Shown here: positions 1,437 through 32,499 of the stretch, piece by piece
Position numbering within the stretch: the first letter of the stretch is position 1
How the letters are laid out: the number at the start of each line of letters is the position of its first letter
Source: Clostridia bacterium
GTDB taxonomy: Bacteria; Bacillota; Clostridia; Oscillospirales; CAG-272
DNA: 40,646 nt
NCBI GenBank assembly: GCA_017508405.1
Contig: JAFVYY010000089.1
Coordinates: 1 to 40,646 of the forward strand
Direction: 5' to 3'
Program-made: the position numbers and the translations under genes
Notes under the pieces: model-generated
Databases searched by the model: none
Told to the model about the DNA's origin: nothing
Seen by the model: the letters and a program-made list of their open reading frames with translations, nothing else

Positions 1437-1928
1437 TCACAGGTTTTCTCTGCCTATAAAATCATCCGCCTCCGCTCTGCTTTTGAACACTACTATATTT
1501 TTGTCACTGTATTTTTCAAGCAAATCATATATAGCAGGCAGATTTTTGATTGGAAATTTTTCAATCTCGTTTTTAAGATAAGGGTCAAGCTCTTTATCTA
1601 TCCACGGCATATCATACCGTTCCTTTCCCAAACGTGAAATAGCACCGTCAAGGCAAACAGAAACAGGCAGATCAAAAAGAATAACCGTATCGCATGCCTT
1701 AATTCTGTTTTCTATTGTCCGACTGTAATTTCCATCTATAATCCAAGAATCAAGATTAAGAATCTCGGATAAGCGCATATCATATTCTTCTCTCGAAATA
1801 TGTGTTTTATCGGGCTTATGCCAAATTGCGTCAAGATAAAATAAAGGAAGCCCTGTTTTATCCCTCAGCTTTTCGGCAAACGTTGTTTTTCCGCTTCCGG
1901 GACAACCAATAACTATAATTTTTTTCAT
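1437..1928 (-). CDS. Adenylate kinase-like / DNA topology modulation (FlaR-like) P-loop kinase
   Basis: IIVIGCPGSGKTT Walker A; LDAIWHKP; WIIDGNYSRT. Confidence 0.85.
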   Translation of the reverse strand: MKKIIVIGCPGSGKTTFAEKLRDKTGLPLFYLDAIWHKPDKTHISREEYDMRLSEILNLDSWIIDGNYSRTIENRIKACDTVILFDLPVSVCLDGAISRLGKERYDMPWIDKELDPYLKNEIEKFPIKNLPAIYDLLEKYSDKNIVVFKSRAEADDFIGRENL

Positions 1929-2701
1929 TTCAATTCATCCTTATCTACGCAAAAAGGCGTGTAATTATTTATAATTTCAATAATGTCACGTTGATAAACA
2001 TTATCGTTAAGCACATCTCCGTTTTGGGAAAAAGAAATACAACGTACATCACACGGGTCTTCCACATATGGATTTTCTATAAAAGTATCCTTAAAATATT
2101 CAGAAAGATATTTAAGCGCATTACCCTCGGGAAAGATAATATTACCGTCGTTTTCTGAAATATTCAAATCACAAAAGCTGTCTAATATTTCTCTTGTCTT
2201 TTTGTTATATGAATTATCATCTTGAGGACTTACAAGCCAAGCGGGTTGAAGACGAATCGGGATACCGCATTTTTTAGCCTGACCGGCAAATTGCCTTACT
2301 GCATCAAGCGGAATTGTTTCTTGATGAAAAGCATCAACAGATAAAAGCAGATCGTTTACACCGCACTCGGCAAGATGGTTTACTACCTCACGAATTTTAT
2401 CTGCATTATTTGAAAAATATCCGTTTGTAATTACCTGCCGTATAGGTATATCGATTTCCCTTGCTGCATTTATCACGGAGTAAACCGCATCGGGATAAAT
2501 AAGAGGCTCACCACCGAAAGCCATTACGGTTTTTATTTTATATTGAGAGGCAATTTTACGTATACAGTCAGCTGCAATCAGGGGATCGATCCTCTCACCG
2601 AATGATTTATGCTCTCCCTCTGAGCAATGCTTACATCTACCAGTACAAGCATTTGTTATAACGAATTCAATTTTACTGAGATTTTTAAAATATTTATTCA
2701 T
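1925..2701 (-). CDS. Radical SAM protein, unknown substrate
   Basis: CTGRCKHC (CxxxCxxC), FGGEP, ITNG, LSVDAFHQE; start chosen at ATG 2701 (track extends to 2734); 4-nt overlap with downstream kinase. Confidence 0.85.
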   Translation of the reverse strand: MNKYFKNLSKIEFVITNACTGRCKHCSEGEHKSFGERIDPLIAADCIRKIASQYKIKTVMAFGGEPLIYPDAVYSVINAAREIDIPIRQVITNGYFSNNADKIREVVNHLAECGVNDLLLSVDAFHQETIPLDAVRQFAGQAKKCGIPIRLQPAWLVSPQDDNSYNKKTREILDSFCDLNISENDGNIIFPEGNALKYLSEYFKDTFIENPYVEDPCDVRCISFSQNGDVLNDNVYQRDIIEIINNYTPFCVDKDELK

Positions 2702-2742
2702 ACGTTTAATATATAGCTTTAACACACAAGACAAAAATTGCT

Positions 2743-3674
2743 TTATACAATCAATCCAAAAACAGCGAACATAAGCGGGATGGTAAGTGCTGACGCAAGG
2801 TGGGAAACTATTGCCATGCCTGATGCCTCGCTTGTATCCTGCCCGTGAGCCTCAGGTATAACTACGCTGTTTAATCCAAGCGGCATAGCAAGAACCGTTA
2901 ACACGCACATGGAGACGCCATGATCGAATTATGTATGCAAAGCACTAAAACAAATATAAGCGGCATTACCAAAAGTCTTATTGCAGTAAGTATATAAATA
3001 CTCTTGATCTTTAATACTTTCTTAACATCTATTTTGGCAACACACATTCCTGTAAGAAGCATTGTGCATGGAGACATACATTTACCGAGAGCATCTATCG
3101 AAACATTTATAAACTGAGGCATGGGTAACTGTGTAAGACCGATTATAATGCCTATTACCATAGCCATAAACAATGGGTTCAACAAATTTTTAAAGGAAAA
3201 CACCTTGCCCGTTTCATTCGGCATTAATAATGCGGGAATAGCCCACGTATAGTTTACGATCCACATAGGAGTACATAAAATAAGATAGGACATGAATATA
3301 TCAGGCATAATAGCTGATACTACGGCTGTACCCATAAAGCCGAAATTCGAAAACGCAATACAGTACGTATGTATTTTTTTACGATATTCATCCTTCGAGC
3401 TGAAAATCGAAACAACATAAGCAAACGCAATAGACAGTGATACTAAAATTACTCCCGCAAGCGCAAATTTCCATGCGGAGCTTAATCTTGATACTGTAAA
3501 GTTTTCCATAAAATTAGTAAGTATCAATGCCGGCATAAAAAGCGTACTGACTAATTTGGATATGGAATTAGTGGCATTTGACGGCAGCTTACATACCTTC
3601 ATTACAACGTATCCTGCGCCTATTATAAGAAATAAAAACTAAATCTGGCTTAATGTGGTTAAAAACGTTGACAT
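2743..3674 (-). pseudogene. AEC (auxin efflux carrier) family transporter, disrupted
   Basis: ATG 3674 with GAAAGGA RBS: MSTFLTTLSQI*FLFLIIGAGYVV in frame with ORF 2898..3602 (FSNFGFMG, NPLFMA); C-terminus DHGVSMCVLTVLAMPLGLNSVVIPEAHGQDTSEASGMAIVSHLASALTIPLMFAVFGLIV* in another frame ending 2743. Confidence 0.85.
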
Positions 3675-3773
3675 ATATAATCCTTTCGATGAAGTCAATA
3701 AATACAATTACAAATCAATTATATCACTGCTTCTGCATTATTTCAATAAAATAATCGCATAATTTTTAATATG

Positions 3774-3806
3774 CTAAACCCCTTGATGGTAAATCAAGGG
3801 GTTTAG
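3774..3806 (-). terminator. Hairpin/terminator after ABC operon
   Basis: 14-bp perfect stem CTAAACCCCTTGAT-N5-ATCAAGGGGTTTAG directly after stop at 3809; weak U-tract. Confidence 0.65.
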
Positions 3807-3808
3807 AA

Positions 3809-6043
3809 TTATTCCATTTTTGACATTTCGCGCTGAGCCATTACAAGACCGTAATAAATACCTTTCTTTTCGATCAGCTCATCGTGTGTTCCTGTTTCGG
3901 CAATTCTTCCCTTGTCTATTACTACAAGCTTTGTAGCGTTTCGAAGAGTTGAAAGCCTATGCGCAATGGCAATAGTGGTTCTATTTGCCGAAAGATTAGC
4001 AAGCGCATCCTGTATCTGTTTTTCCGTTTCAGTATCAAGGGATGCAGTTGCCTCATCAAGGATAAGGATTCTGGGATTGTGTAACAGCGCTCTTGCAATT
4101 GCAACCCTCTGCCTTTCTCCGCCTGAAAGATTATAACCCTTTTCACCAACCTTTGTGTTATAGCCGTCGGGAAGCTTGATTATAAACTCGTGACAGCCTG
4201 CAAGCTTAGATACTGCAATTATTTCTTCTCTGGTAGCGGTAGGCTTCGCATACGCAATATTTTGATAAATACTGCCCGAGAACAGGAAGGTTTCCTGAAG
4301 TACGACACCTATCTGTGAACGAAGTGATTCCTGTGAATAATCTCTTATATCAATGCCGTCAACAAGAATACTGCCCTCTTCAACGTCATACATACGCATA
4401 ATAAGGTTAATAAGGGTTGATTTACCCGTTCCCGATTTACCTACAAGGCCGATAAATTCACCTGATTTAATGCTCAGACTTATATTATGAAGCACCTCTG
4501 TACCGCTTTCGTATCCAAAGGATACGTTATTGATTTCAATATCTCCCTTAATAGCCTTATCAACAGACTGCTCCCTATCTGAAATCTCAATTTCTTCATC
4601 AAGAATTTCAAATATTTTGCTTGACGACGTAAGAAATCTCATAGCGTGACGAGGAATACCGGCTATCATACGTAAGGGACCGTAAATAAGTCCTGCATAT
4701 GATGAAAACAGTGTCATTTCACCGAGGGTCATTTCACCACCCAGGATCTTATTTCCAACATAGTATAAGATTATAAATTCACCGAAGCTGATAAAGAATT
4801 GAAGTATTGGCATTAAAATACTCCAAATGCAGTCCGCCTTTTCGGTTATATTTCTTTCATCTCTTGCTGCTTTATCATATCTTTCTGCTTCTCTGTGCTC
4901 CATTCCGAATGCCTTAACAACACGAATACCGGAAAAAATATCGTGAAGCACAGCATTTGACTGAGCCGAGCATTGCCATCTTCGGCGGTACATTCTCATT
5001 ACGAACTTCCAAAACAGATTAAAAGAAAGTACAACGAAGGGAGTTGGAATCATAATAAGTATAAAAAGCTTATAATCATAAACAAGAATTACGGTTCCAA
5101 CGGCTATGAAAAGAATAAGCTGTTCCAAAACGTTTGGCAAGTAATTAACCAAGAAATTTTGAACCTGTGACGTATCACTCGACACTCTGCTCATCAAATC
5201 TCCCGACGTTCTTTTAGATATCTTAGATATGGAAAGCTTCTGTATCTTATCAAAAAGCATCTTACGAAGATCGACTATCATTCCATTACTTGCATTTATC
5301 AAAAGGTGACTTCTCACCATAGAAACTCCCCTTACGAGAAGCTGTGTGCCGAGCATAGATAAAACCACAAGAACAAATGGAAATAGCGACACTGCCTCGG
5401 GGTTTTCGCTCTTAATGTAATCATCTACAAGTATTTTATTTATGTATGGAATTGCGAGATTAAGAACGCTGACAAGGAAGAACAGTACTATCGAGCTAAC
5501 TATAAATCCCTTGTACGGGCTAGCCACCCTCCAAAGTCTTTTAACTACCTTCTTCTTACTTGTACAGTGCATACACGTCTTTGAGCCGGGTTGGAATGGT
5601 CTTCCGCACTTTTCACATCTGTCAACTCCATCCTCACCATCTGAGGATGCGTGAAGCTCTTTGCCATCCTCAAGATAATGATTAAGCTTCTTTAAAGCGT
5701 GAATTATACGCTTTGAGCTGCTCATATCACTTCTGCATATTAGTTTAATAATTCCGCTTGACTTCTCCACGTAGGAAACGTAAATACATCCGACACCTAT
5801 ATCAGTTTTTATCTCTGATACTGAGCTTGAATCAATATCTAATACAAGCTCACCATCCGATATTACGCATAAACGCTTTTTGTCGGCATAGAAAAATCCC
5901 TCTATCCTCTTTTCCGGATCATCCTTGTCAAGATTAAATCGGAAGGTGCAAAGTGACTCCTCCGCCGAAGCATCGGGCAATATTCTTTTTATTTCATCGT
6001 AGAGACCGCCTACGCATGTTTTCTCTTTTTTTCTTATGAACAT
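3809..6043 (-). CDS. ABC transporter fused TMD-NBD (exporter fold) with ~165-aa N-terminal domain and Zn-ribbon
   Basis: CEKC..CMHC before TMD; GKSGTGKST, LSGGERQR, LILDEATASLD, AHRLST. Confidence 0.9.
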   Translation of the reverse strand: MFIRKKEKTCVGGLYDEIKRILPDASAEESLCTFRFNLDKDDPEKRIEGFFYADKKRLCVISDGELVLDIDSSSVSEIKTDIGVGCIYVSYVEKSSGIIKLICRSDMSSSKRIIHALKKLNHYLEDGKELHASSDGEDGVDRCEKCGRPFQPGSKTCMHCTSKKKVVKRLWRVASPYKGFIVSSIVLFFLVSVLNLAIPYINKILVDDYIKSENPEAVSLFPFVLVVLSMLGTQLLVRGVSMVRSHLLINASNGMIVDLRKMLFDKIQKLSISKISKRTSGDLMSRVSSDTSQVQNFLVNYLPNVLEQLILFIAVGTVILVYDYKLFILIMIPTPFVVLSFNLFWKFVMRMYRRRWQCSAQSNAVLHDIFSGIRVVKAFGMEHREAERYDKAARDERNITEKADCIWSILMPILQFFISFGEFIILYYVGNKILGGEMTLGEMTLFSSYAGLIYGPLRMIAGIPRHAMRFLTSSSKIFEILDEEIEISDREQSVDKAIKGDIEINNVSFGYESGTEVLHNISLSIKSGEFIGLVGKSGTGKSTLINLIMRMYDVEEGSILVDGIDIRDYSQESLRSQIGVVLQETFLFSGSIYQNIAYAKPTATREEIIAVSKLAGCHEFIIKLPDGYNTKVGEKGYNLSGGERQRVAIARALLHNPRILILDEATASLDTETEKQIQDALANLSANRTTIAIAHRLSTLRNATKLVVIDKGRIAETGTHDELIEKKGIYYGLVMAQREMSKME

Positions 6044-6073
6044 TTAAAAATGCCCTCTCTTTACAAATCTCGA

Positions 6074-6604
6074 TTATAGATAAAGCTCTATGCGGCGGTA
6101 GCTCTTTCTATCGAGCCCCGCAATACTTTTAATAACGAATCTATTTCCGTCCACATCAAGAAGGATCGCACCGTCCTCACCTACTCTAACAATGTTTCTA
6201 AATGTATCCTGCATTGTAAAATTAAGATTTCTTCCATCGGAAAGAGTAACCCTCCAATATGAAAAGCCGTATCTCTCCTTGAGGCTGTCAATAGTCTTAA
6301 TTGTCGGGGAATAATATTTTCTTTCAAGCTCTGTTTTTATAAGAGCTGAGATATCGTCATCAAAATCCTTTATATCGTATATTACACCCTTTTCCTTTCC
6401 GTCATCGGATATAACCGATATGTACTTCCATAAAAGCTCAAACGGAAAGGCACGATGCAAAAATACACGATCAAGATTTTTTTCCTCCTCACCGTCATTA
6501 TACGTCATTGCAAGGAAGCCGTTTTTTGTATAGAACTTAGCATTTGTACTGTCAAGCCTGTGTATTTTTGCAGCTTCTTCAAGCATTATTTCATTCTCTG
6601 CCAT
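6074..6604 (-). CDS. DUF1854-like protein
   Basis: HRAFPF, ELERKYYSP, YGFSYWRV, DVDGNRFVI..LDRKS motifs; lies between two ABC genes. Confidence 0.8.
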   Translation of the reverse strand: MAENEIMLEEAAKIHRLDSTNAKFYTKNGFLAMTYNDGEEEKNLDRVFLHRAFPFELLWKYISVISDDGKEKGVIYDIKDFDDDISALIKTELERKYYSPTIKTIDSLKERYGFSYWRVTLSDGRNLNFTMQDTFRNIVRVGEDGAILLDVDGNRFVIKSIAGLDRKSYRRIELYL

Positions 6605-6616
6605 AATAATTCCTCC

Positions 6617-8917
6617 TTATTCGGTTATTCCCGCATTTTTCAGTGCTTCCTGCTGGAGTGTATAAAGTTTCTTATATACTCCCTCTTCCTTTTCAAGAAG
6701 CTCCTTATGTGTTCCCTCTTCGGCTACCTTTCCTCGCTCTATGACAATAAGCTTGTCCGCATCACGAAGCGTTGAAAGTCTATGGGCTATCATAATTGTT
6801 GTTTTTCCGCGGGTTAGCGCTCCTAAAGCATTTTGAATCAGCTTTTCGGTTTCTGTATCCATCGCTGCGGTTGCTTCATCAAGAATAAGTATCTTAGGAT
6901 CACGAAGAATGGCACGGGCAATAGAAACTCTTTGACGTTCGCCTCCCGAAAGGTCCTTATATCCAAATCCTATTTTGGTATTGTATCCATCCGGTAATCT
7001 CATTATAAAATCATGAGCTCCGGCACATTTGGACGCCTTGATAACCTCTTCATATGTAGCGTCCGGCTTAGCATATTTAATGTTTTCAAGTATAGTTCCG
7101 ATAAACAAATATGTCTCCTGAGAAACAATAGCGATGTTATTGTATAATGATGCAAAAGAAAGATCTTTAACATTTACACCGTCAATAAGTACTTCTCCCT
7201 CTTCACAGTCATAAAGTCTTATGATCAAGTTGGCAATAGTACTCTTGCCTGCTCCGGTATGTCCTACAATGCCGAGGATGTGTCCGGCATCAACCTTAAA
7301 GCTTACTTTATCTATTATCTTTCTGTTTTTGGTATATGAGAAATCAACATCCTTGAATTCAACAGTGCCCTCCATATCAAGGAGCTCCACAGCGCCTTCC
7401 TTTTCTGTAATATCAGGCTTAGTATCGAGAATCTCAAAAAGCCTTTGAAGAGCGTTTGATGATGATGCTGACCAGTCCACCATCTGAGAAAAGAAATACA
7501 TCGGACTGTAAATCATATTTACGTATGCGGTAAACGTAAGAAGCTGACCATAGGTGAAGCCCCTATAACCCTTTATTACCATCCAACCGCCTACACCAAG
7601 GGCAATTATATTACCGAGATAAAGTATAATTCCCGCTATAGGATAGGAATAGTTATTGAAAATAGAAAGCTTTTTATTGTTTTTAGCTACACGAGTGCTG
7701 CTTTTATTGAATCGGTCTATTTCCTCATCCTCTTTGGAGAATGCTTTTACAACGCGCATTCCCGAAAGAACGTCGGAAAGAAGTCCATTCATACTTCTCT
7801 GGCTCGAATAATTTCTTGCGTGGTATTTCATACTTGTTCGATAGAACTTACGCAAAACTATAAAGAACAAGGGAATTGTTATAAGAGATAGCGCCGCAAG
7901 GATAGGATTCATTATAAACAGGATAACGCAAAGTGTTGCTACCTGAACTATATTTATAAGGAAATAAGGTACTCCGTCACAGAAAAATCCGTAAATTGTG
8001 TTTGCATCATTATTTACCTGCGTCATAAGACCGCCCGTCTGTCTTCCGCTGAAGAAGCCGAGAGACAAGCGTTCAATAGCGCCGAAAATAGTTATTTTCA
8101 AATCATAGACAACTCTTGCTGATATCTTCGACGTAATATATCCGTTTATTATATTGAATATCTGGGAAAGTATCTTCGTTCCTACAACTATGGAAATCAC
8201 GAGAAGAAGCTGGCCGTAAAAGGTTCCGCCCACTTCAAGGACCTGATCGTAAAAGAATCCGCTTGAAAAATATGGCGCTAAAATACTGGTTGCGGTAAGC
8301 AGAATAAGGGATGATATCATTATAAGTATGTAAAGCTTATATTTTGCCAAAAACATACCGAATCTTGTAAACAGCTTACCCTTTTCCATACACCTGGGAC
8401 ATATTTTTCTGTGTTTATTTGGATATCTCATTCCGCATTTTGGGCAGCGCTGAGATTTAGGGTCATCATCAGGATCTACCGCAAAAGATACATCCGATAT
8501 TTCTCCTTTTTTTATTTTATTAAGATATTTAATGAATAAAAGCGCTGAGTTTTTGCAGAAGTTGGACATTGCGGTAAGAAATACATACTCATCCGATTCA
8601 TCCTTTGCGGTCAAACGTGCACCTGACAATAGCTCCTCAACCTTGAAATCCTTAAGAGAGGAAAGCTTGTACTCCTCAAATCCGCCCTCGTTCCAAAAAA
8701 CATCAAGACCGCCTTTAGCAGGATTTTCTCTTGACACTAAGGAATCACTTCCCCACAATACGTAAAGAGTTTCATTTGTTGACATTAGATAGGTATCACA
8801 ATAAGCATGGTCACTGTTCATGTCACAACGTAGAGTCAGATATATATTTTCCATATCAACGCCCTTGTGACAGGCATATTCCACCACGTGGCGCGGTATT
8901 TTATCTATTTCCAGCAT
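6617..8917 (-). CDS. ABC transporter fused TMD-NBD (exporter fold) with ~180-aa N-terminal domain and Zn-ribbon
   Basis: CPKC..CPRC before TMD; GHTGAGKST, LSGGERQR, ILILDEATAAMD, AHRLST. Confidence 0.9.
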   Translation of the reverse strand: MLEIDKIPRHVVEYACHKGVDMENIYLTLRCDMNSDHAYCDTYLMSTNETLYVLWGSDSLVSRENPAKGGLDVFWNEGGFEEYKLSSLKDFKVEELLSGARLTAKDESDEYVFLTAMSNFCKNSALLFIKYLNKIKKGEISDVSFAVDPDDDPKSQRCPKCGMRYPNKHRKICPRCMEKGKLFTRFGMFLAKYKLYILIMISSLILLTATSILAPYFSSGFFYDQVLEVGGTFYGQLLLVISIVVGTKILSQIFNIINGYITSKISARVVYDLKITIFGAIERLSLGFFSGRQTGGLMTQVNNDANTIYGFFCDGVPYFLINIVQVATLCVILFIMNPILAALSLITIPLFFIVLRKFYRTSMKYHARNYSSQRSMNGLLSDVLSGMRVVKAFSKEDEEIDRFNKSSTRVAKNNKKLSIFNNYSYPIAGIILYLGNIIALGVGGWMVIKGYRGFTYGQLLTFTAYVNMIYSPMYFFSQMVDWSASSSNALQRLFEILDTKPDITEKEGAVELLDMEGTVEFKDVDFSYTKNRKIIDKVSFKVDAGHILGIVGHTGAGKSTIANLIIRLYDCEEGEVLIDGVNVKDLSFASLYNNIAIVSQETYLFIGTILENIKYAKPDATYEEVIKASKCAGAHDFIMRLPDGYNTKIGFGYKDLSGGERQRVSIARAILRDPKILILDEATAAMDTETEKLIQNALGALTRGKTTIMIAHRLSTLRDADKLIVIERGKVAEEGTHKELLEKEEGVYKKLYTLQQEALKNAGITE

Positions 8918-8919
8918 TA

Positions 8920-9381
8920 TTATATCATCTCCCTTTCCGATTCATCCTCATCTATTTCTCTTCTCTTTATTTCTCTTATAATTCTTTGAGCCTTGTCCAT
9001 AAGACGGACAAGCTCGCAAAATTCATCATCTCCAAGCTTTTCTGAAAGCTCATTTAAACGCTCCGTTTGCTTCTCCTCATACTTAGCGCAAAGCTCTACT
9101 GCCTTATCTGTCGGACGAACGAAAAAGCTACGCTTGTCGTCTTCCGACTTTTCTTTATAAACATAACCGTTTTTCTCAAGCGCCTGAATATGTGCTGCGA
9201 TCATTGGCTTTGAAACAGCCATTATCTCCGCAAGCGCTAACGGGGTCAAATCTCGCTTTCGCCTTGCTATTATATTTAAAAGTGCCATTTCGCTGGGACG
9301 AATAGGCAAATAATTTTTAAGCTCCGTAAAATCCCGTGAAAATTTGGAAAATACAACATTAGCTCCCATATGCTTGTTCAT
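8920..9381 (-). CDS. MarR family transcriptional regulator
   Basis: LAEIMAVSKPMIAAHIQALEKNGYV..DDKRSFFV (winged HTH with DxR); GGGAGA RBS before ATG 9381 (track start TTG 9402). Confidence 0.88.
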   Translation of the reverse strand: MNKHMGANVVFSKFSRDFTELKNYLPIRPSEMALLNIIARRKRDLTPLALAEIMAVSKPMIAAHIQALEKNGYVYKEKSEDDKRSFFVRPTDKAVELCAKYEEKQTERLNELSEKLGDDEFCELVRLMDKAQRIIREIKRREIDEDESEREMI

Positions 9382-9403
9382 AAGCGTTCTCCCGTCAATC
9401 AAA

Positions 9404-9421
9404 AGTTAACCTACATTAACT
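9404..9421. promoter_or_regulatory. Palindromic operator, probable MarR autoregulatory site
   Basis: AGTTAA-N6-TTAACT immediately downstream of the -10 box. Confidence 0.6.
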
Positions 9422-9450
9422 ATTATAATTTACTTTCCCAATAATGTCAA
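9422..9450 (-). promoter_or_regulatory. Sigma-A promoter of marR-ABC operon
   Basis: Perfect TTGACA-N17-TATAAT on minus strand. Confidence 0.85.
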
Positions 9451-9500: not shown

Positions 9501-9530
9501 AAATAAAAGAGCGAGTTTTTAACAACTCGC
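9501..9530 (-). terminator. Intrinsic terminator after SDR gene
   Basis: GCGAGTT/AACTCGC stem followed on minus strand by TCTTTTATTT. Confidence 0.7.
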
Positions 9531-9534
9531 CCAT

Positions 9535-10257
9535 TTATTTATCTTTTTCTAACTCAAGTTTCCAACCGTTGTCACCGTGATATATCATATGACGAGTCAT
9601 TCCGCCGTCAACACATATATTCTCCCCCGTTATAAATCCCGCCATGTCTGAGCAAAGATACATAACTATATTTGCAATATCAAGAGGGTTTCCTACTCTT
9701 CCGACAGGCTGTTGAACAGCATCGGCACCCTCATACACCGTATATGCAGTATCTATCCAACCGGGAGAAACGGAATTTACTCTTACCTTTCCCGCAAGAC
9801 TTACCGCCAAAGCGTGAGTTAACGCCGAAATTCCGCCCTTTGCAGCAGTATAGCTTTCAGTTTCCGGCTGACTCATTCTGTCACGGGATGAGGATATATT
9901 TACAATGCTTGCTCCCCCTGCAAAATACGGCGCAAACAACTTTGAAAGATAAAAGGGAGCAGTAACTCCAACCTTTAACGCATACTCAAAATCCTCATAG
10001 CTTCCCTTTTCGATACCGCACATTTTCGGAGCGGCATTATTAATTAAGAAGTCCACTCTGCCATATTGAGAAATAACTTTTTTTGCGAATTCTTCAAGAA
10101 TTATTTTATCTGCAATATCTCCAACAAAGTAATCGTTATCAAGCAAGTCGATTACACATACTCTTGCTCCCGCCTTTTCCAACTCGTCACGGATACATTT
10201 ACCGATTCCCCTTGCGCCGCCTGTTACAACGGCAATTTTTCCTTTAAAATCAAACAT
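9535..10257 (-). CDS. SDR family oxidoreductase
   Basis: TGGARGIG, NNAA, YTAAK, SPGWIDT. Confidence 0.9.
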   Translation of the reverse strand: MFDFKGKIAVVTGGARGIGKCIRDELEKAGARVCVIDLLDNDYFVGDIADKIILEEFAKKVISQYGRVDFLINNAAPKMCGIEKGSYEDFEYALKVGVTAPFYLSKLFAPYFAGGASIVNISSSRDRMSQPETESYTAAKGGISALTHALAVSLAGKVRVNSVSPGWIDTAYTVYEGADAVQQPVGRVGNPLDIANIVMYLCSDMAGFITGENICVDGGMTRHMIYHGDNGWKLELEKDK

Positions 10258-10265
10258 ATAATCTC

Positions 10266-10745
10266 CTATATCCTCGCAAGAGTGTTTAAATTATTTCCGG
10301 TTAAGCGGTATATCGTCCACTCATCCAAGGGCTCTGCACCTAACGATTTATAAAAATCTATACTTGGTTTATTCCAATCAAGACAGCACCACTCAAGTCT
10401 GCCGCATCCTCTTTCAACAGTAATACGTGCAAGCTCACGAATCAAAGCCTTTCCGTGACCTTTTCCCCTAAATTCAGGTTTTACAAACAGATCCTCAAGA
10501 TATATTCCCGCTCTGCCGAGAAAGGTGGAAAAATTATGAAAAAACAGGGCAAATCCGACCTCTTTTCCATCTTCCAAAGCAAATATGACCTCTGCTTTTC
10601 CTTTTTCAAATATCCATTCACGTAAAAGATCCTCATCAGCTACAACAAGATCCGACATTTTTTCATACTCGGCAAGGGATCTTATAAATTCTAATATCAG
10701 AGCAGTATCCTGTTCTTTTGCCATTCGAAATTCCGTTTTGTTCAT
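10266..10745 (-). CDS. GNAT N-acetyltransferase (diamine acetyltransferase-like)
   Basis: FFHNFSTFLGRAGIYLEDLFVKPEFRGKGHG, CLDWNKPSIDFY; GGGAGA RBS before ATG 10745. Confidence 0.9.
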   Translation of the reverse strand: MNKTEFRMAKEQDTALILEFIRSLAEYEKMSDLVVADEDLLREWIFEKGKAEVIFALEDGKEVGFALFFHNFSTFLGRAGIYLEDLFVKPEFRGKGHGKALIRELARITVERGCGRLEWCCLDWNKPSIDFYKSLGAEPLDEWTIYRLTGNNLNTLARI

Positions 10746-10761
10746 AGGCTTCTCCCGTATC

Positions 10762-11292
10762 TTAGTCAAAAATCTTAATAAGCTTAGACGGCTCCTTGCG
10801 CTTTTTCACACGGAGCTTATCATCATCCGATGCATAACCGAGTGAAATAACAAGTCTGACTGTCCCATCAAGGCCACAAATCTCACGTATATCACCATCA
10901 TTGAGCCAACCGAGAATACATGTGCCAAGTCCCTGTGCCGTTGCTTCCGCTGTAATGTATGCGGATACTATACCAATATCAATGGAACGGTAGTCATTTT
11001 TCTTTACCTTTGCTCCTAACGCTGCCGATGCAACATAGGGCATTTCCGATATAACAATCATTATGGGGGCATCGTTTGTAAATTTATTCATTCCCATGCC
11101 TTGAGTTGCCTTTGCAACCTTCTTTGCAGCCTCTCCCTTGCAAACAGTAATAAAGTACGGCTGACCGTTACATGCAGACGGAGACAGTCTGGCAGATTCC
11201 AATATTCTGTCAAGCTTTTCCTGCTCTACCTCACGTTTTGGATTATAGCTGCGACATGATTGACGTGTATTTGCAATTTCATTGAAATTCAT
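10762..11292 (-). CDS. Nitroreductase family protein
   Basis: RQSCRSY, ARLSPSACNGQP, GLGTCILGW. Confidence 0.9.
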   Translation of the reverse strand: MNFNEIANTRQSCRSYNPKREVEQEKLDRILESARLSPSACNGQPYFITVCKGEAAKKVAKATQGMGMNKFTNDAPIMIVISEMPYVASAALGAKVKKNDYRSIDIGIVSAYITAEATAQGLGTCILGWLNDGDIREICGLDGTVRLVISLGYASDDDKLRVKKRKEPSKLIKIFD

Positions 11293-11304
11293 AATGCTCT
11301 CCTT

Positions 11305-11898
11305 TTATAATTCGATAAGAACGGCTCGGCACGGAGCGCCGTCTCCGCCGCCTAAATTCAACGGAGCGGCACTAAGCAGATAAACTCCCTCAGGTACATG
11401 GGAAAGTCTTATTCCCTCTAAAAGAACTACGTTTTTCTGCAACAATTCCAAGTGTACCTGCTTTGGCGAATCCTCAGGACCGACGGTCTGTGATTCATTG
11501 CCTATCAGCTCAACACCCGCATGGGCAAATACCCTTGCCGCATCATACGTAACTGTTGCATTGCCCTTTATGAGAATTTTATTTACGTCTTTTTCTTGGA
11601 CATTTCTTGCTTTGCAAACAAATAATTCTGCATCATTTCGACTTATATCGCCGCTATGCTCCACCACAAGCGCATATCCAATCGTCTTTTGAAGAGAAAG
11701 CTCGTCAATCCTTAAACCGCTGTTTATAAAATGATACGGCGCATCAACATGAGTACCATTATGAGCGCACATACTAAATGACGTAAGATTACATACGTCT
11801 CCGCTATTTATTGAAAGAAGCTCTTTCCTTTCCGGCTTAGGGTCCCCCGGATATATGTTGCATGAATAGATTTCCTGAGAAATATCGTATATCTTCAT
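11305..11898 (-). CDS. Cyclase / kynurenine formamidase-like metallohydrolase
   Basis: HNGTHVDAPYH motif, YPGDP, GDGAPCRA. Confidence 0.9.
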   Translation of the reverse strand: MKIYDISQEIYSCNIYPGDPKPERKELLSINSGDVCNLTSFSMCAHNGTHVDAPYHFINSGLRIDELSLQKTIGYALVVEHSGDISRNDAELFVCKARNVQEKDVNKILIKGNATVTYDAARVFAHAGVELIGNESQTVGPEDSPKQVHLELLQKNVVLLEGIRLSHVPEGVYLLSAAPLNLGGGDGAPCRAVLIEL

Positions 11899-11927
11899 TT
11901 TAACTCCACAAACGTTACTTTAAAGCA

Positions 11928-11956
11928 ATTATACCATAAATGTAACGTTAAATCAA
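11928..11956 (-). promoter_or_regulatory. Sigma-A promoter of cyclase operon
   Basis: TTGATT-N17-TATAAT with TG extension. Confidence 0.65.
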
Positions 11957-11982
11957 CAAAATATATTTTAAAATATCCGGTC

Positions 11983-12011
11983 TTGACGAAAATAAAATAT
12001 TTTGTTATAAT
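11983..12011 (+). promoter_or_regulatory. Sigma-A promoter of glnA
   Basis: TTGACG-N17-TATAAT with TGn extension; GGAGG RBS downstream. Confidence 0.8.
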
Positions 12012-12043
12012 TAATATATAAAAAACTTTGGAGGAAATGCTTT

Positions 12044-13468
12044 ATGGCAAAAACAGTACAGGATATTCTTACTCTCATCAAAGAAAATGACATCAAAATG
12101 GTTGACTTCAAGATGGTCGATATCAACGGACAGTTCAGACACGTTACCATCCTTGCAGAAAACTTTTCCGAAGACACTGTAAAAAGCGGTATCGGCTTTG
12201 ACGCTTCCAACTACGGATATGCGGTAGTTGAAAAGAGCGACATGGTATTCATACCCGATCTTGACACAGCTATCATTGATCCGTTCTGCGACATCCCTAC
12301 TCTTTCAATGACAGGAAATGCTATGGTTATAGCAAGTCCCGAAAACAAGCCCCTTGCTCAGTATCCCCGAAATATAGTTCTCGCTGCTGAAAAATATATG
12401 CAGGACTCCGGAGTTGCTGACACAATGCTTATTCTTCCCGAATTCGAGTTTTATCTTTTCGATAACGTTGGCTGGGAGGTTCAGCCTAATTCTATCGGAG
12501 TTACCCTTGATACACAGCAGTCCTATTGGAACAGCGCAACAGAAGGATTTGGATGCGTTGTACCTAAGCAGAAGGCATACCATATTGCCAAGCCCTTTGA
12601 TAAGGCTTATGAAGCAAGAAGTGAAATGTGTCTCCACATGAAGAATATAGGTATTGAGATCAACTATCATCACCCCGAGGTTGCCGCATCCGGTCAGTTT
12701 GAGATAGAGCCTCAGCTTGGTAAGATGTCAACTATGGCAGACGCTACCATGATGATCAAATACATAATTCACAATACTGCCCTTAAGTATGGCAAGACTG
12801 CTACATTTATGCCCAAGCCCATTTACGGTGAGGCAGGCAGCGGTATGCATGTTCATATGCTTCTTCTCAAGGACGGCGAGCCTGTATTCTCCGACGACAA
12901 CGGTTATGCGCATCTCAGCGAAACAGCTCACTACTTTATGGGCGGTCTCCTTAAGCATATTGCTTCACTCTGCGCAATCACTAACCCCAGCACAAACTCC
13001 TTTAAACGTCTTGTTCCCGGCTTTGAAGCTCCCGTTACAGTTGGTTATGCTACATCTAACAGAAGCGCTGTAATCCGTATCCCCGCTTACGCTAAAACAC
13101 CCGCTAAGCGTCGTTTTGAGCTTCGTAATCCCGATGCAACGTGCAACCCCTACTTCTGTTATGCAGCTATACTTATGGCAGGTCTTGACGGTATTAAGAA
13201 CAAGATAGATCCCCACGCAAACGGTTGGGGCCCCTATGATATGAACCTCTTCCACTTGAGTGATGAAGAAAAGGCTAAGCTCACTCAGCTTCCTACCTCT
13301 CTTACCGAGGCCCTTGACGCTCTTGAAGCAGACCACGATTACCTCACAGCAGGCGGTGTTTTCCCCGAAGAGCTTCTTAAGAACTTTATTAAAACTAAGC
13401 GTGCAGAATGCAGTGAGCTTTCCAAGATTCCTCATCCCGCTGAATTTGACAGATACTATAATCTTTAA
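12044..13468 (+). CDS. glnA: Glutamine synthetase type I
   Basis: FDAS, PEFEFYLF, HHPEVA, ATFMPKP..GSGMHVH, NSFKRLVPGFEAP, NRSAVIRIP, RFELRNPD, PHPAEF. Confidence 0.96.
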   Translation: MAKTVQDILTLIKENDIKMVDFKMVDINGQFRHVTILAENFSEDTVKSGIGFDASNYGYAVVEKSDMVFIPDLDTAIIDPFCDIPTLSMTGNAMVIASPENKPLAQYPRNIVLAAEKYMQDSGVADTMLILPEFEFYLFDNVGWEVQPNSIGVTLDTQQSYWNSATEGFGCVVPKQKAYHIAKPFDKAYEARSEMCLHMKNIGIEINYHHPEVAASGQFEIEPQLGKMSTMADATMMIKYIIHNTALKYGKTATFMPKPIYGEAGSGMHVHMLLLKDGEPVFSDDNGYAHLSETAHYFMGGLLKHIASLCAITNPSTNSFKRLVPGFEAPVTVGYATSNRSAVIRIPAYAKTPAKRRFELRNPDATCNPYFCYAAILMAGLDGIKNKIDPHANGWGPYDMNLFHLSDEEKAKLTQLPTSLTEALDALEADHDYLTAGGVFPEELLKNFIKTKRAECSELSKIPHPAEFDRYYNL

Positions 13469-13472
13469 TAAC

Positions 13473-13502
13473 AAAAAACGGCTGATACGTCAGCCGTTTT
13501 TT
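13473..13502. terminator. Bidirectional terminator between glnA and GH30
   Basis: AAAAAACGGCTGA-TACG-TCAGCCGTTTTTT. Confidence 0.9.
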
Positions 13503-13515
13503 ATAATGCGAATCA

Positions 13516-14787
13516 TTAAAGAACTATTGTATTTAAAGATCTTGCAGAAAGAACGTAAGATTTTTCCTCAATTGTAATTACCTTCTCTGTGGGATGGGGA
13601 TTGCATACAACCATAATTCTTTCACCATCGGGATTTGTAAAAGAAACAATATTTGAAGAAAATTCTCCCTTTGTCTCCGTAAACTTAGCACCTCTTTTTA
13701 CAAAATGAGAAATATGCTTCATAAGGTAGAACTCGGGAGTGAACGTAGCTTTACCGTCCACAACGTGTATAAGTGAATTTTGACGCCATCCCCAAGTGCT
13801 TGAGCTATCACCCTCAAGAGCGATATTCCAATAAACGTATGCGGATGCGCCTTCTCTTAAGTACATACGAACCATTTCAAATATGTACATCATCTGATCC
13901 CATGAGTTGTCACCGCCGCCGCACTCGGACTCTGTCTGTATAATTTCAAGCTCGGGATAATCATCCTTAGTTGCTCCGAGAGCCATCTTTCCTGCCCATT
14001 GATAACCAACGCCCTTAATATATTTTCTTGCCTTTTCATCCTGCATAGCGTGAGCAAGATACTGGTAATATCTTGTTCTTGTCCATCTGCTATCCCCCTC
14101 GGGACCGTTTATCGTTCCAAAGAAAATATCAACACCGCTGCCCTCTAAAGCTTCACCGAGATAATTACCTATAAAATGCGTAAGCATGTCTCCGCTCCAA
14201 ACACAGGATGGGAATACCTGATTGCTACATGGCTCATTTTGCGGATGAACGTGAACAAGGGGAACTCCTTTTTCAAGATAAGCATCAACGTACTTTCTGA
14301 AATACAATGCATATGCCTTAAAATTCTCCTCGGTTGCATTGAAAATACCGTTACTGTATACCTTCTTTGTTTTAAGCCAAAGAGGTGGACACCAGGGTGA
14401 TGCAAACATCTGCATATCATCCTGACGGGAAAGCGCTTCTCTAATCAACGGAAGAAGATACTTTTCATCTCTTTCAACGGAGAAATTATTCATTTCATAG
14501 TCCCCGTCTGTTTCGTTGTAAGAATAGAAATCTGTTGCGAAATCACTTGCACCCATTGGAGTTCTGCAATAATTGAAATTTGCTTTATCTTTACAAAAGA
14601 GCTCGTCAAGAAGTTCCTTTTTTTCTTTAGGCTTTAATTTATTCAGAGCAATTGCGCCAAGCTCGGAAAAGCATGTTCCAAATCCTCTTATATTCTGTTT
14701 TTCATCGCCAAACGTAATCTTAATACCCTCTTTATCGGTTGTCTTTCCCTTTTGCCACTTGACTCTTTCCGTTGTTGAAATAATCAT
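13516..14787 (-). CDS. Glycoside hydrolase family 30 (glucosylceramidase-like), cytoplasmic
   Basis: GFGTCFSELG, RTPMGASDF, FASPWCPP, PQNEP (acid/base), IIQTE (nucleophile), YVYWN; no signal peptide. Confidence 0.9.
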   Translation of the reverse strand: MIISTTERVKWQKGKTTDKEGIKITFGDEKQNIRGFGTCFSELGAIALNKLKPKEKKELLDELFCKDKANFNYCRTPMGASDFATDFYSYNETDGDYEMNNFSVERDEKYLLPLIREALSRQDDMQMFASPWCPPLWLKTKKVYSNGIFNATEENFKAYALYFRKYVDAYLEKGVPLVHVHPQNEPCSNQVFPSCVWSGDMLTHFIGNYLGEALEGSGVDIFFGTINGPEGDSRWTRTRYYQYLAHAMQDEKARKYIKGVGYQWAGKMALGATKDDYPELEIIQTESECGGGDNSWDQMMYIFEMVRMYLREGASAYVYWNIALEGDSSSTWGWRQNSLIHVVDGKATFTPEFYLMKHISHFVKRGAKFTETKGEFSSNIVSFTNPDGERIMVVCNPHPTEKVITIEEKSYVLSARSLNTIVL

Positions 14788-14937
14788 AAGATTAACTCCT
14801 TATATTAAAATTCAAGATTATTTTAACATATATGCCTTTATAAATCAATCTATTTTTTAAAAAAGGAAAAGAACTATCGGTCAGAGGCGTACTCTAAGGG
14901 ATAGCTTTGCCTACAACAAAAAAACAGAAGTCGCAGA

Positions 14938-14966
14938 TTGTTTTTTTACGATTATTGTGATATAAT
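14938..14966 (+). promoter_or_regulatory. Sigma-A promoter of methyltransferase
   Basis: TTGTTT-N17-TATAAT with TG extension. Confidence 0.55.
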
Positions 14967-15039
14967 ATGATGTGTGATAAGTCTTGTGTCGGGTTGCGAT
15001 AAGTAAGAACGGCAAATATGAATTTTCAGGAGGTTATGT

Positions 15040-15690
15040 ATGCTTGAAAAAATGAGTGATTTCTTTGAGGCGAGACTTGATAGATACGATGAGCATATGA
15101 TGACCGACATCGAGTCCGCAAACGAGTTCTATCCCTTTACGGCAAGGCAATTGCCGACTGCCAAAAACTCTTTAATACTTGATTTGGGTTGCGGTACGGG
15201 ATTGGAGCTGCAAGAATATTATAAGCTTAACCCGTCGGCAAGGATTACGGGAATTGACCTTTCGCAAGGAATGTTAACACAACTTAAGCAAAAATTCGTT
15301 GGAAAGGAAATAACCTTGATTCTTGGTTCATATTTTGATGTACCACTCGGTGAGAACGTATTTGATGCAGCTGTATCGGTGGAAAGCCTTCACCATTTTA
15401 AAAAAGAAGAAAAGATTGGTTTGTATTCTAAATTGCACATTGCTCTGAGGGATAATGGTTATTTTATCCTCACGGATTATTTTTCCTTATCCGATGAAGA
15501 AGAACAGATGCATCGACAGAATTTGATAACCCTGAAGGCAGCACAAGGAATTACCGATGACGAGTTTTACCATTATGATACACCGCTTACTGTGAAACAT
15601 GAAATTGAAGCTCTCATTGAAGCGGGTTTTACGTCTGCAGAGGTGTTGAACAATTGGGGAGCAACGTACACTGTTAAGGCAATTAAATAG
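15040..15690 (+). CDS. Class I SAM-dependent methyltransferase
   Basis: ILDLGCGTG, GIDLSQGML, FDAAVSVESLHH; AGGAGG RBS. Confidence 0.92.
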   Translation: MLEKMSDFFEARLDRYDEHMMTDIESANEFYPFTARQLPTAKNSLILDLGCGTGLELQEYYKLNPSARITGIDLSQGMLTQLKQKFVGKEITLILGSYFDVPLGENVFDAAVSVESLHHFKKEEKIGLYSKLHIALRDNGYFILTDYFSLSDEEEQMHRQNLITLKAAQGITDDEFYHYDTPLTVKHEIEALIEAGFTSAEVLNNWGATYTVKAIK

Positions 15691-29810: not shown

Positions 29811-30509
29811 TTAAAAAATAAGCTTTGCTCCGCCAAAATCAACCACATCCCCCGACAAAATTGATATGATAGACATTTCAAGAGCGTCTACGTGAGCCTT
29901 TATTTTACTATAATCAAGCAAGGTTTCCGCATTTCCGAAAACGAAAATTTTACCGTCACACACAAGACCGGCTCCGCCGATAAAGCCTGTATTATATCCC
30001 GGTAGTTTTATGTTTTGCTCTCTGATAAAAGTAACCTTAATTCCGCAACTTTCCAATGCATTTTTTACAGATACATCGGCAGTTACGGCATTTTGACCGT
30101 CGAGGGCAAGAGTTGTACATGCGGTATAACCTTGATTTACGTTTATAAGCTCATATCCCTTTTCTATAGCGATGGCCTTAAGCTCCGTAGACAAAAAATC
30201 AATTTTTCCAAATATTCTTTTATCCATAACAAGAGCGTTAAGACCAATATCATGGGGATATTGGGATGATACGGGCGGCGTACATTTTATAACCTTATAC
30301 CCATTTTTCTCCGCTATATCAAATATTTCCTTATTATCCCAATAGTAATCCTCATAGCAAAAAATATTTTCTTCTATTATATTTATAAGCATATCGGCAT
30401 GGGATGAAACCGGTAAATCAAGTTTTTTATACGGTCTAAGAGGACAAACCTCAATTCCCGTAGCTTCTGTAAAGCCTTTACAAGCTTCTATATTTAAAAA
30501 AGCCTTCAT
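29811..30509 (-). CDS. DUF6873-like protein
   Basis: SHADM, YPHDI, VNQGYTAC, TAD, IKLPGYNTGFIGGA motifs. Confidence 0.75.
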   Translation of the reverse strand: MKAFLNIEACKGFTEATGIEVCPLRPYKKLDLPVSSHADMLINIIEENIFCYEDYYWDNKEIFDIAEKNGYKVIKCTPPVSSQYPHDIGLNALVMDKRIFGKIDFLSTELKAIAIEKGYELINVNQGYTACTTLALDGQNAVTADVSVKNALESCGIKVTFIREQNIKLPGYNTGFIGGAGLVCDGKIFVFGNAETLLDYSKIKAHVDALEMSIISILSGDVVDFGGAKLIF

Positions 30510-30536
30510 ATAACCTCACAAATCTATTATAAAGTG

Positions 30537-30564
30537 AAAAAAAGACCGCAGAATACGGTCTTTT
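30537..30564 (-). terminator. Terminator after rpmB
   Basis: AAAAGACCG-N7-CGGTCTTTT. Confidence 0.8.
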
Positions 30565-30579
30565 GATTTCATTAATCAG

Positions 30580-30765
30580 TTAGGCACGAGTTACCTTGCC
30601 GGAACGAAGGCAACGGGAGCATACATAAACTGTCTTGTTTGAACCTTCAACAACAGCCTTAACTCTTCTGATGTTGGGCTTCCAAGTTCTGTTGGTCTTA
30701 CGGTTAGAGTGGGAAACGTTGTGTCCAAAAACTACGCCCTTACCGCATACATCACATTTAGCCAT
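30580..30765 (-). CDS. rpmB: 50S ribosomal protein L28 (Cys-containing form)
   Basis: [35 protein letters not shown]. Confidence 0.97.
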
Positions 30766-30818
30766 TTTTTACACCTCCATTAGAGTAGAAAATTAACCTA
30801 CTAAAATTCACGCTTGCT

Positions 30819-30847
30819 ATTATAACACAGTATTTTTTCAATTGCAA
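30819..30847 (-). promoter_or_regulatory. Sigma-A promoter of rpmB
   Basis: TTGCAA-N17-TATAAT with TG extension. Confidence 0.75.
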
Positions 30848-30864
30848 TAGCAAAATCGAATTTT

Positions 30865-32472: not shown

Positions 32473-32499
32473 ATTAATCCTCTATTCCAACCAAAACGG

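Follow-up and report, generated by a model that had tools for sequence, protein, structure and literature searches.

The window analyzed here, a stretch of 40,646 nucleotides (nt) from a Clostridia bacterium of the gut (GTDB lineage Clostridia; Oscillospirales; CAG-272; GenBank assembly GCA_017508405.1, contig JAFVYY010000089.1, positions 1 to 40,646), carries an operon of four genes on its minus strand. Read in the direction of transcription, it consists of a promoter, an operator, a gene for a MarR-type regulator (marR), a gene for an ABC half-transporter (ABC1), a gene for a protein of the DUF1854 family, a gene for a second half-transporter (ABC2), and a hairpin. A preliminary description, made from the DNA letters without database searches, had listed the promoter, the palindromic operator, the order of the four genes, the sizes of the gaps between them, and the terminal hairpin; each of these elements lies where it had been placed, on the minus strand. 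The features that are relevant for the following account are:

9445..9450, minus strand: -35 hexamer TTGACA, part of a 12/12 promoter match with a 17-nt spacer
9422..9427, minus strand: -10 hexamer TATAAT, part of the same 12/12 match
9404..9421, strandless: palindromic operator AGTTAA-N6-TTAACT, adjoins the -10 box and overlaps the presumed start of transcription
8920..9381, minus strand: marR, 153 amino acids (aa) from the ATG at 9381; the listed open reading frame (ORF), 8920-9402, starts from a TTG; PF01047, PF12802
6617..8917, minus strand: ABC1, a 766-aa half-transporter with N-terminal domain, four-cysteine (Cys4) ribbon, transmembrane domain (TMD), and nucleotide-binding domain (NBD)
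8390..8446, minus strand: putative zinc-ribbon motif of ABC1, CxxC-x11-CxxC (C158, C161, C173, C176)
6074..6604, minus strand: DUF1854 protein, 176 aa, soluble; PF08909
3809..6043, minus strand: ABC2, a 744-aa half-transporter with N-terminal domain, Cys4 ribbon, TMD, and NBD
5666..6010, minus strand: predicted PH-like domain of ABC2, residues about 12-126, from an AlphaFold2 (AF2) model and VIA-align
5564..5617, minus strand: putative zinc-ribbon motif of ABC2, CxxC-x10-CxxC (C143, C146, C157, C160)
3774..3806, minus strand: 14-bp hairpin, 2 nt past the stop codon of ABC2; probable end of the operon, without a U-tract

The intergenic gaps between marR and ABC1, ABC1 and DUF1854, and DUF1854 and ABC2 measure 2, 12, and 30 nt, respectively. 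A Shine-Dalgarno sequence is present at every junction, either within or just past the end of the preceding gene; that of the DUF1854 gene overlaps the stop codon of ABC1. The TTG start of the listed marR reading frame sits inside the palindrome of the operator, and the ATG at position 9381, which is located behind a GGGAGA, appears to be the likelier start; this ATG and its ribosome-binding site align across seven marR-bearing loci. The hairpin at 3774-3806 has a perfect 14-bp stem and a 5-nt loop (-23.7 kcal/mol, z -5.86), and none of 200 shuffled sequences was equally stable. On the other side of the operon, a terminator-like site (9532..9509) closes the upstream gene of an SDR protein, so that the unit is bounded at both sides, by this site and by the 3' hairpin.

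The flanks of the operon contain no supported gene for a small peptide, only four ORFs of 22-35 codons, and matched no family and no riboswitch in an Rfam scan. A foreign origin of the operon was considered and rejected, because the G+C content is even (0.36-0.41 over 3-12 kb). The synteny with genomes of the same genus was too weak at the DNA level to be of use.

Conservation of the module among relatives

The conservation of the module was assessed in 80 loci from species-representative genomes, namely the best 80 of 144 relatives by likeness of their DUF1854 proteins (46-89% identity). An ABC1-type gene is located directly upstream of the DUF1854 gene in all 79 testable loci (the contig of the 80th begins inside DUF1854), and an ABC2-type gene directly downstream in all 80 (tblastn). 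The order ABC1-DUF1854-ABC2, for which the preliminary description had proposed a neighborhood survey, is therefore conserved in the relatives. There is no constant functional neighbor; the genes upstream of the module encode, for example, RadA-like, MatE, M18 peptidase, YgjP-like, or HAD hydrolase proteins, and in other cases FGAM synthase, phosphoketolase, HelD, and others. This combination of a fixed core with varying surroundings agrees with the earlier view of a self-contained unit. In three loci (L070, L084, and L086), further large ABC-type ORFs (about 1000 aa; about 300-500 aa) are present past ABC2 on the opposite strand.

Among 201 sampled genomes of the bacterial family to which the window belongs, DUF1854 was detected in 147 and the N-terminal head domain of the transporters (see below) in 149. 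The two additional genomes (G137 and G164) gave only weak matches to the head, and the tallies per genus are identical in the first 30 genera listed. Many genomes of the family have 2-3 matches to DUF1854. In locus L096 (G067:C7:44500-63500), two diverged, paralogous modules with the same gene order are arranged tail to tail (4050-9117, plus strand; 10002-15142, minus strand) and flank a single ORF of 261 aa. Neither DUF1854 nor the head was found in the three other genomes from the genus of the window (G031, G120, and G186; 96-97% complete), which indicates that the module is variable within the genus, either by gain in the present lineage or by loss in the others.

In the phylum as a whole, the distribution is patchy (13 of 300 genomes). 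Representatives in other families of the phylum show either the sandwich arrangement of two ABC genes around DUF1854 (L112 and L114) or a single ABC gene with DUF1854 (L111, 5490-8211; L113, 7053-9834). The single-ABC versions adjoin genes for phosphoketolase, a GPH symporter, and alpha-glucosidase, with no cyanophycin synthetase gene (cphA) nearby. Among the control genomes, Sulfolobus acidocaldarius has a DUF1854 match over cut-off and the 13 others have none, so the family extends to the archaea.

N-terminal heads of the two half-transporters

Both ABC1 and ABC2 possess about 165-180 extra residues ahead of the TMD core, which begins (PF00664) at residues 198 and 184, respectively. The preliminary description had pointed out that ordinary exporter halves lack such an extension, and the alignment of residue 2 of Sav1866 with residue 167 of ABC2 is in line with this. 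It had also reported a CxxC-x10/12-CxxC motif immediately before the first transmembrane helix. The Cys4 motif is indeed present, with the spacing x10 in ABC2, but the spacing in ABC1 is x11 rather than x12, and "immediately" does not hold, because about 20 residues of helix separate the ribbon from the Pfam start of the TMD. The four cysteines are retained in 71 of 72 full-length orthologs of ABC1 and in 65 of 69 of ABC2, and this conserved motif probably forms a zinc ribbon.

The heads of the two transporters are homologous to each other (hhalign, 99.4%, E 8.9e-22, 174 columns; alignments from the loci of the relatives, A2 with 69 rows and A3 with 67 rows). An AF2 model of residues 1-185 of ABC2 (predicted local distance difference test [pLDDT], 86.6) shows seven strands and a C-terminal helix between residues 32 and 126; the block of residues 21-120 reaches a pLDDT of 93-98, and the ribbon, which is followed by a long helix (163-184), is modeled with less confidence. 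When the model was compared with 48,161 chains using VIA-align, the best match was 4tyz (Z 10.3, root mean square deviation 3.1, 106 residues aligned), and all 50 of the matches listed are PH, PTB, FERM-F3, Pru, or GRAM domains, as judged by the titles of the entries. The top matches in Foldseek are likewise all PH or PTB domains, at E 1.5e-3 and weaker, with none at E 0.001. The N-terminal domain of ABC2 is therefore predicted to adopt the PH-like superfold, a seven-stranded beta sandwich capped by a C-terminal helix. PH-like folds often bind peptides or lipids; the fold alone shows no function. The proposal in the preliminary description that the N-terminal domains and DUF1854 capture, process, or gate a peptide-like substrate is therefore a hypothesis.

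At the level of sequence, the heads matched no characterized accessory domain in Pfam, NCBIfam, or PDB, which answers the search of the N termini proposed in the preliminary description. Residues 1-180 of the two transporters matched no Pfam family at E <= 0.01, a sequence search of both N termini and the DUF1854 protein against PDB returned nothing below E 0.03, and a search of the ESM Atlas with residues 1-170 of ABC2 yielded unnamed clusters only. A profile of the head searched against 1.84 billion representative proteins matched the N termini of proteins in 796 clusters at E <= 0.001 and in 246 at 1e-10. All 27 of the matches that were scanned for domains (712-930 aa) consist of ABC_membrane and ABC_tran; two further matches are zinc-ribbon repeat proteins that align on the ribbon alone. 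Among the proteins examined, the head is confined to the extended type of ABC transporter.

Transporter core

The remainder of both proteins follows the plan of ABCB-type exporters (type IV fold), with a TMD (PF00664) and an NBD (PF00005) in one chain. The two domains occupy residues 198-473 and 536-684 of ABC1 and residues 184-457 and 518-667 of ABC2. The closest solved structure is Sav1866 (2hyd), whose residue 2 corresponds to residue 167 of ABC2 (3.8e-112, query 167-735); other matches to the ABC2 core (about 165-740) are TM288 (2.2e-103), MsbA (about 1e-97), and TmrAB-type chains. Sav1866, MsbA, TM287-288, and TmrAB have the core and the ATPase motifs in common with ABC1 and ABC2. By contrast, their solved chains start at a position equivalent to about residue 165 and lack both the PH-like/zinc-ribbon head and a DUF1854 partner.

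The Walker A motif, the Q-loop, the LSGGE signature, the Walker B motif with its glutamate, and the H-loop are complete in both transporters. The Walker B motif is followed by glutamate in all 72 orthologs of ABC1 and all 69 of ABC2, and the signature motif is present in 72 of 72 and 67 of 69, respectively. Because the catalytic motifs of both NBDs are complete, the conserved pair of paralogs would assemble as a heterodimer in which both ATP sites are active. This differs from TM287-288, one of whose ATP sites is degenerate; here, both sites look canonical.

DUF1854 protein

The 176-aa protein encoded between the two transporters is a clear member of PF08909 (97.3 bits vs. a gathering threshold of 26.8; 8.3e-28; residues 46-173 on positions 3-128 of the 130-position profile). 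Its AF2 model (pLDDT 84, predicted template modeling score 0.56) consists of two beta-rich halves, each with a terminal helix. Foldseek returned nothing for this model at E <= 0.001; the best match in VIA-align is a DUF1285 protein (2ra9, Z 4.9), and PH and EVH1 domains match residues 99-176 at Z 3-4. An alignment of DUF1854 with the heads using hhalign detected no homology (probabilities 0.1 and 0.2), and no internal duplication was detected by sequence (probability 3.8).

The association of DUF1854 with the extended ABC type, which had been stated in the preliminary description, is evident from the near coincidence of the two in the family (147 vs. 149 of 201 genomes) and from the existence of full-length fusions. 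In these fusions, which fall into two clusters (P0198 and P0274, 930 aa, on two contigs; P0275, 926 aa), the DUF1854 domain follows the head, the TMD, the NBD, and a linker of about 100 residues. For two beta-proteobacteria, Price et al. (10.1101/072470) reported that DUF1854 is cofit both with the gene of the ABC transporter and with cphA/cphA', and they proposed that it is a subunit of a polymer exporter. A complex prediction for the N-terminal parts of ABC1 (1-190) and ABC2 (1-175) with DUF1854 gave a score that controls showed not to be specific and that speaks neither for nor against binding. Taken from gene order and fusions, DUF1854 is probably a cytoplasmic subunit of the pump.

Relationship to cyanophycin-associated transporters

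The best NCBIfam model for both transporters is NF052233 ("cyanophycin metabolism-associated ABC transporter"), with scores of 497.8 bits for ABC1 and 560.8 bits for ABC2 at a cut-off of 880 bits. The best model for the DUF1854 protein is NF052234 ("cyanophycin metabolism-associated DUF1854 family protein"), at 65.6 bits and thus below the cut-off of 150. Residues 45-741 of ABC2 align with positions 46-747 of the 766-position model NF052233, and residues 124-760 of ABC1 with positions 112-748; because the match of ABC2 begins at residue 45, that model includes the N-terminal extension. The names of the two models and the study by Price et al. (10.1101/072470) also bear out the link to cyanophycin synthetase in Proteobacteria that the preliminary description had cited.

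The transporters of these models, which represent the loci with cphA in Acidovorax and Cupriavidus (10.1101/072470), have the same plan of N-terminal extension, TMD, and NBD. As in the window, DUF1854 is encoded directly behind an ABC gene, and in both cases the family is biochemically uncharacterized. By contrast, these loci contain one ABC gene, whereas DUF1854 is flanked by two paralogous ABC genes in the window; moreover, the scores here are below the cut-offs, no cphA is nearby, and marR and an operator have been added. In agreement with the earlier note, there is no cyanophycin gene in the window, nor anything in it that suggests polymer synthesis, and no cphA (TIGR02068) over cut-off in the genome itself, which is 72% complete. 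In the family, cphA exceeds the cut-off in one of 201 genomes, where it is located on a different contig than the DUF1854 pieces. Because the module is present in 147 of these genomes and cyanophycin synthetase in one, the name "cyanophycin metabolism-associated" would be misleading if it were carried over.

Promoter, operator, and MarR

The promoter TTGACA-17-TATAAT (9450..9422) is the sole 12/12 match among 22 promoter-like sites between 3600 and 9600 (17.8 +/- 3.8 in shuffled sequences). The operator at 9404-9421, which abuts the -10 box, reads AGTTAAtgtaggTTAACT. The perfect pattern AGTTAA-N6-TTAACT occurs only once in the 1.41-Mb assembly, with a single one-mismatch site elsewhere; a control search with the reversed pattern gave an equal count, two per strand. 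Because the assembly contains no second perfect operator that would indicate a wider regulon, the repressor looks local. In an alignment of seven marR-bearing promoters (A5), two elements are retained in spite of diverged flanks, namely the -35 box, whose hexamer TTGACA is invariant, and the palindrome that follows the -10 box. Three of the marR-bearing loci (L013, L014, and L017) have a second palindrome, GTTCA-N7-TGAAC, between the -35 and -10 boxes, which is lacking in the window.

The product of marR contains a MarR-type winged helix in residues 36-92 (PF01047, 38.4 bits vs. a threshold of 24.6; PF12802, 38.2 bits vs. 27). The MarR autorepressors of efflux operons act on a palindromic site over their own promoter, and the operon shares with these systems (family PF01047) that it starts with the winged-helix gene and has a palindrome at the promoter. 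The layout suggests that repression works by obstructing RNA polymerase at the start site. By contrast, the regulator exceeds the cut-off of none of the NCBIfam equivalogs (the best is HpaR, 41.3 vs. 121.2 bits).

Among the 71 loci with at least 700 nt of upstream sequence, marR is located directly upstream of the module and on the same strand in eight (L009-L011 and L013-L017), which are the closest relatives of the window. The others have a HAD hydrolase, a YgjP-like protein, other genes, or nothing upstream of the module. The designation "MarR-controlled" in the preliminary description is therefore apt with respect to the gene and the predicted operator at the promoter, but only for the nearest clade.

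Other features of the window

Downstream of the operon, a TTGAAA-17-TATAAT site with a TG extension (3718-3746, minus strand; 11/12) is the probable promoter of a Mem_trans (AEC-type) gene (2898-3602). Genes for a small radical SAM protein (269 aa) and a 163-aa AAA_18-like protein follow each other at 1437-2734 (minus strand). A DUF6873 protein, a 535-aa protein with MutS domain V alone, and an Mbeg1-like protein are encoded in tandem at 29811-33675 (minus strand).

Proposed function and alternative explanations

With moderate confidence, the operon is interpreted as encoding a MarR-repressed, heterodimeric ABCB-type exporter with PH-like/zinc-ribbon heads and a DUF1854 subunit, which serves inducible efflux in this clade and is independent of cyanophycin. 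MarR bound to the operator over the transcription start would keep the operon switched off until a small-molecule ligand releases the repressor and allows expression. ABC1 and ABC2 would then pair to a heterodimer with two active ATP sites, and DUF1854, which is fused behind the NBD of the same kind of transporter elsewhere, would join the pump as its cytoplasmic subunit. The heads and DUF1854 may build a cytoplasmic platform that recognizes the cargo or gates the inward-facing cavity, and the cargo would pass outward from the cytoplasm or the inner leaflet. In the marR-bearing clade, the pump would thus act as an inducible efflux system and not as a cyanophycin exporter. None of the observations that the preliminary description had named as refuting its view was made; the N termini have no characterized counterpart by sequence, and the order of the genes is maintained in relatives.

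Several points weigh against this interpretation. Transport itself, its outward direction, the formation of a complex, and the binding of zinc are all deduced from sequence. Because MarR is located upstream of the module in only eight of 71 loci, a role in inducible efflux cannot be ancestral or general. Neither ABC1 nor ABC2 exceeds the cut-off of a drug-efflux equivalog in NCBIfam, and some transporters with the ABCB fold import their substrates (IrtAB, YbtPQ, and Rv1819c). The 80 loci are kin rather than independent cases, because they were selected by likeness to the DUF1854 protein of the window, and cphA could have been missed in the genome itself, because the latter is only 72% complete. 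The fold assignment of DUF1854 is weak (best Z 4.9), and the hairpin at the end of the operon, which the terminator scan did not list, lacks a U-tract on the coding strand.

The module might export a cyanophycin-like amino acid polymer of cytoplasmic origin, a function suggested for those beta-proteobacterial relatives that are located beside cphA/cphA'. This would be in line with the top NCBIfam matches (NF052233 and NF052234) and with the polymer efflux that Price et al. (10.1101/072470) proposed from cofitness data. However, the scores are far below the cut-offs (498 and 561 vs. 880; 65.6 vs. 150), cphA is absent from the window and not over cut-off in the 72%-complete genome, it is found in one of 201 genomes of the family compared with 147 for DUF1854, and the neighbors in relatives are unrelated housekeeping genes, all of which makes this explanation very improbable. 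Import by a transporter with an exporter-type fold, with heads and DUF1854 receiving or processing the incoming substrate, is hardly more plausible. The direction of transport is not readable from sequence, and there are importers that combine the fold of an exporter with a cytoplasmic processing domain at the N terminus (IrtAB), but the operon lacks a gene for a substrate-binding protein or lipoprotein, no enzymatic domain was detected in the heads or in DUF1854, and MarR-repressed operons with ABCB-type pumps typically serve efflux. It is somewhat easier to envision, albeit still unlikely, that the module is a housekeeping flippase for lipids or envelope precursors in this bacterial family, with the cytoplasmic domains in a regulatory role and MarR as a late, clade-specific addition. 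Its occurrence in 147 of the 201 family genomes, frequently with two copies and at chromosomal sites with varied neighbors, its sequence similarity to MsbA and ABCB4-type lipid translocators, and the frequent binding of lipids by PH/GRAM-like folds would fit such a role. Nevertheless, ABCB-type exporters in general resemble MsbA, the distribution in the phylum is patchy (13 of 300), and the module was not found in 54 of the 201 family genomes, among them all three further genomes from the genus of the window (96-97% complete); because of these 54 genomes, it is not essential.

Another doubtful candidate is an exporter of a ribosomal peptide or small protein in which the heads and DUF1854 act as a cargo receptor, in the manner of the peptidase domain of peptidase-containing ABC transporters (PCATs) or of DdE/DdF. 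The predicted PH-like fold of the head, whose top structural neighbors include peptide-binding PH, PTB, and Pru domains, would suit this function, as would the N-terminal position that it shares with the accessory domains of other ABC exporters. PCATs and HlyB-type transporters, which like ABC1 and ABC2 have a cytoplasmic accessory domain before the first transmembrane helix, may by analogy provide a model for the docking of cargo; their heads, however, are C39 or C39-like, whereas the head here is PH-like rather than papain-like. A peptidase domain (C39) is absent from ABC1 and ABC2 in Pfam, and the PCAT models in NCBIfam align only from about residue 160. The only small ORFs in the 3' flank are chance-like (22-35 codons), and no conserved small gene accompanies the module in relatives. 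A published study (PMC8657885) reports that the PH-domain proteins DdE and DdF are required for the ABC-dependent export of the leaderless bacteriocin EntDD14 (enterocin DD14), which offers a bacterial precedent, by analogy, for PH domains in the service of ABC export. However, DdE/DdF are of a different, membrane-bound PH type and are separate proteins encoded in a bacteriocin cluster, whereas no bacteriocin gene is present here.

A broader hypothesis, which is entertained tentatively, regards the heads and the two-lobed DUF1854 as a dedicated cytoplasmic cargo receptor. The transporters would then constitute a widespread class of their own among ABC exporters, with members in Clostridia, Proteobacteria, and archaea, and each lineage would export a specific peptide or polymer produced in its cytoplasm; cyanophycin-like polymers would be only one case of such lineage-specific cargo. 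In the present clade, the machine would have come under the control of a MarR sensor as an inducible system.

Implications

As a type, the module is neither rare nor new: Pfam and NCBIfam both have entries for it, the literature already contains a suggestion for its role, and 147 of the 201 sampled genomes of the bacterial family carry it. What is new here is the MarR layer on a two-ABC, cyanophycin-independent variant of a catalogued exporter family. A search of the full-text literature, whose coverage does not extend to subscription journals, returned a single paper that mentions DUF1854 and no description of the PH-like/zinc-ribbon head, of the cyanophycin-independent form with two ABC genes, or of the MarR-controlled clade.

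DUF1854 and its ABC partner constitute a large, biochemically uncharacterized family, as documented by the 796 representative clusters that match the head profile at E <= 0.001, and the sole functional hint in print ties this family to cyanophycin synthetases. The marR-bearing clade offers an experimental handle with a defined, predicted operator, and the ligand of the repressor may point to the cargo of the pump or to the condition that induces it. For structural studies of how ABC exporters recruit their cargo, the module represents a clear target, because its half-transporters carry a predicted head of PH-like domain and zinc ribbon and its DUF1854 partner is, in some lineages, part of the transporter chain itself.

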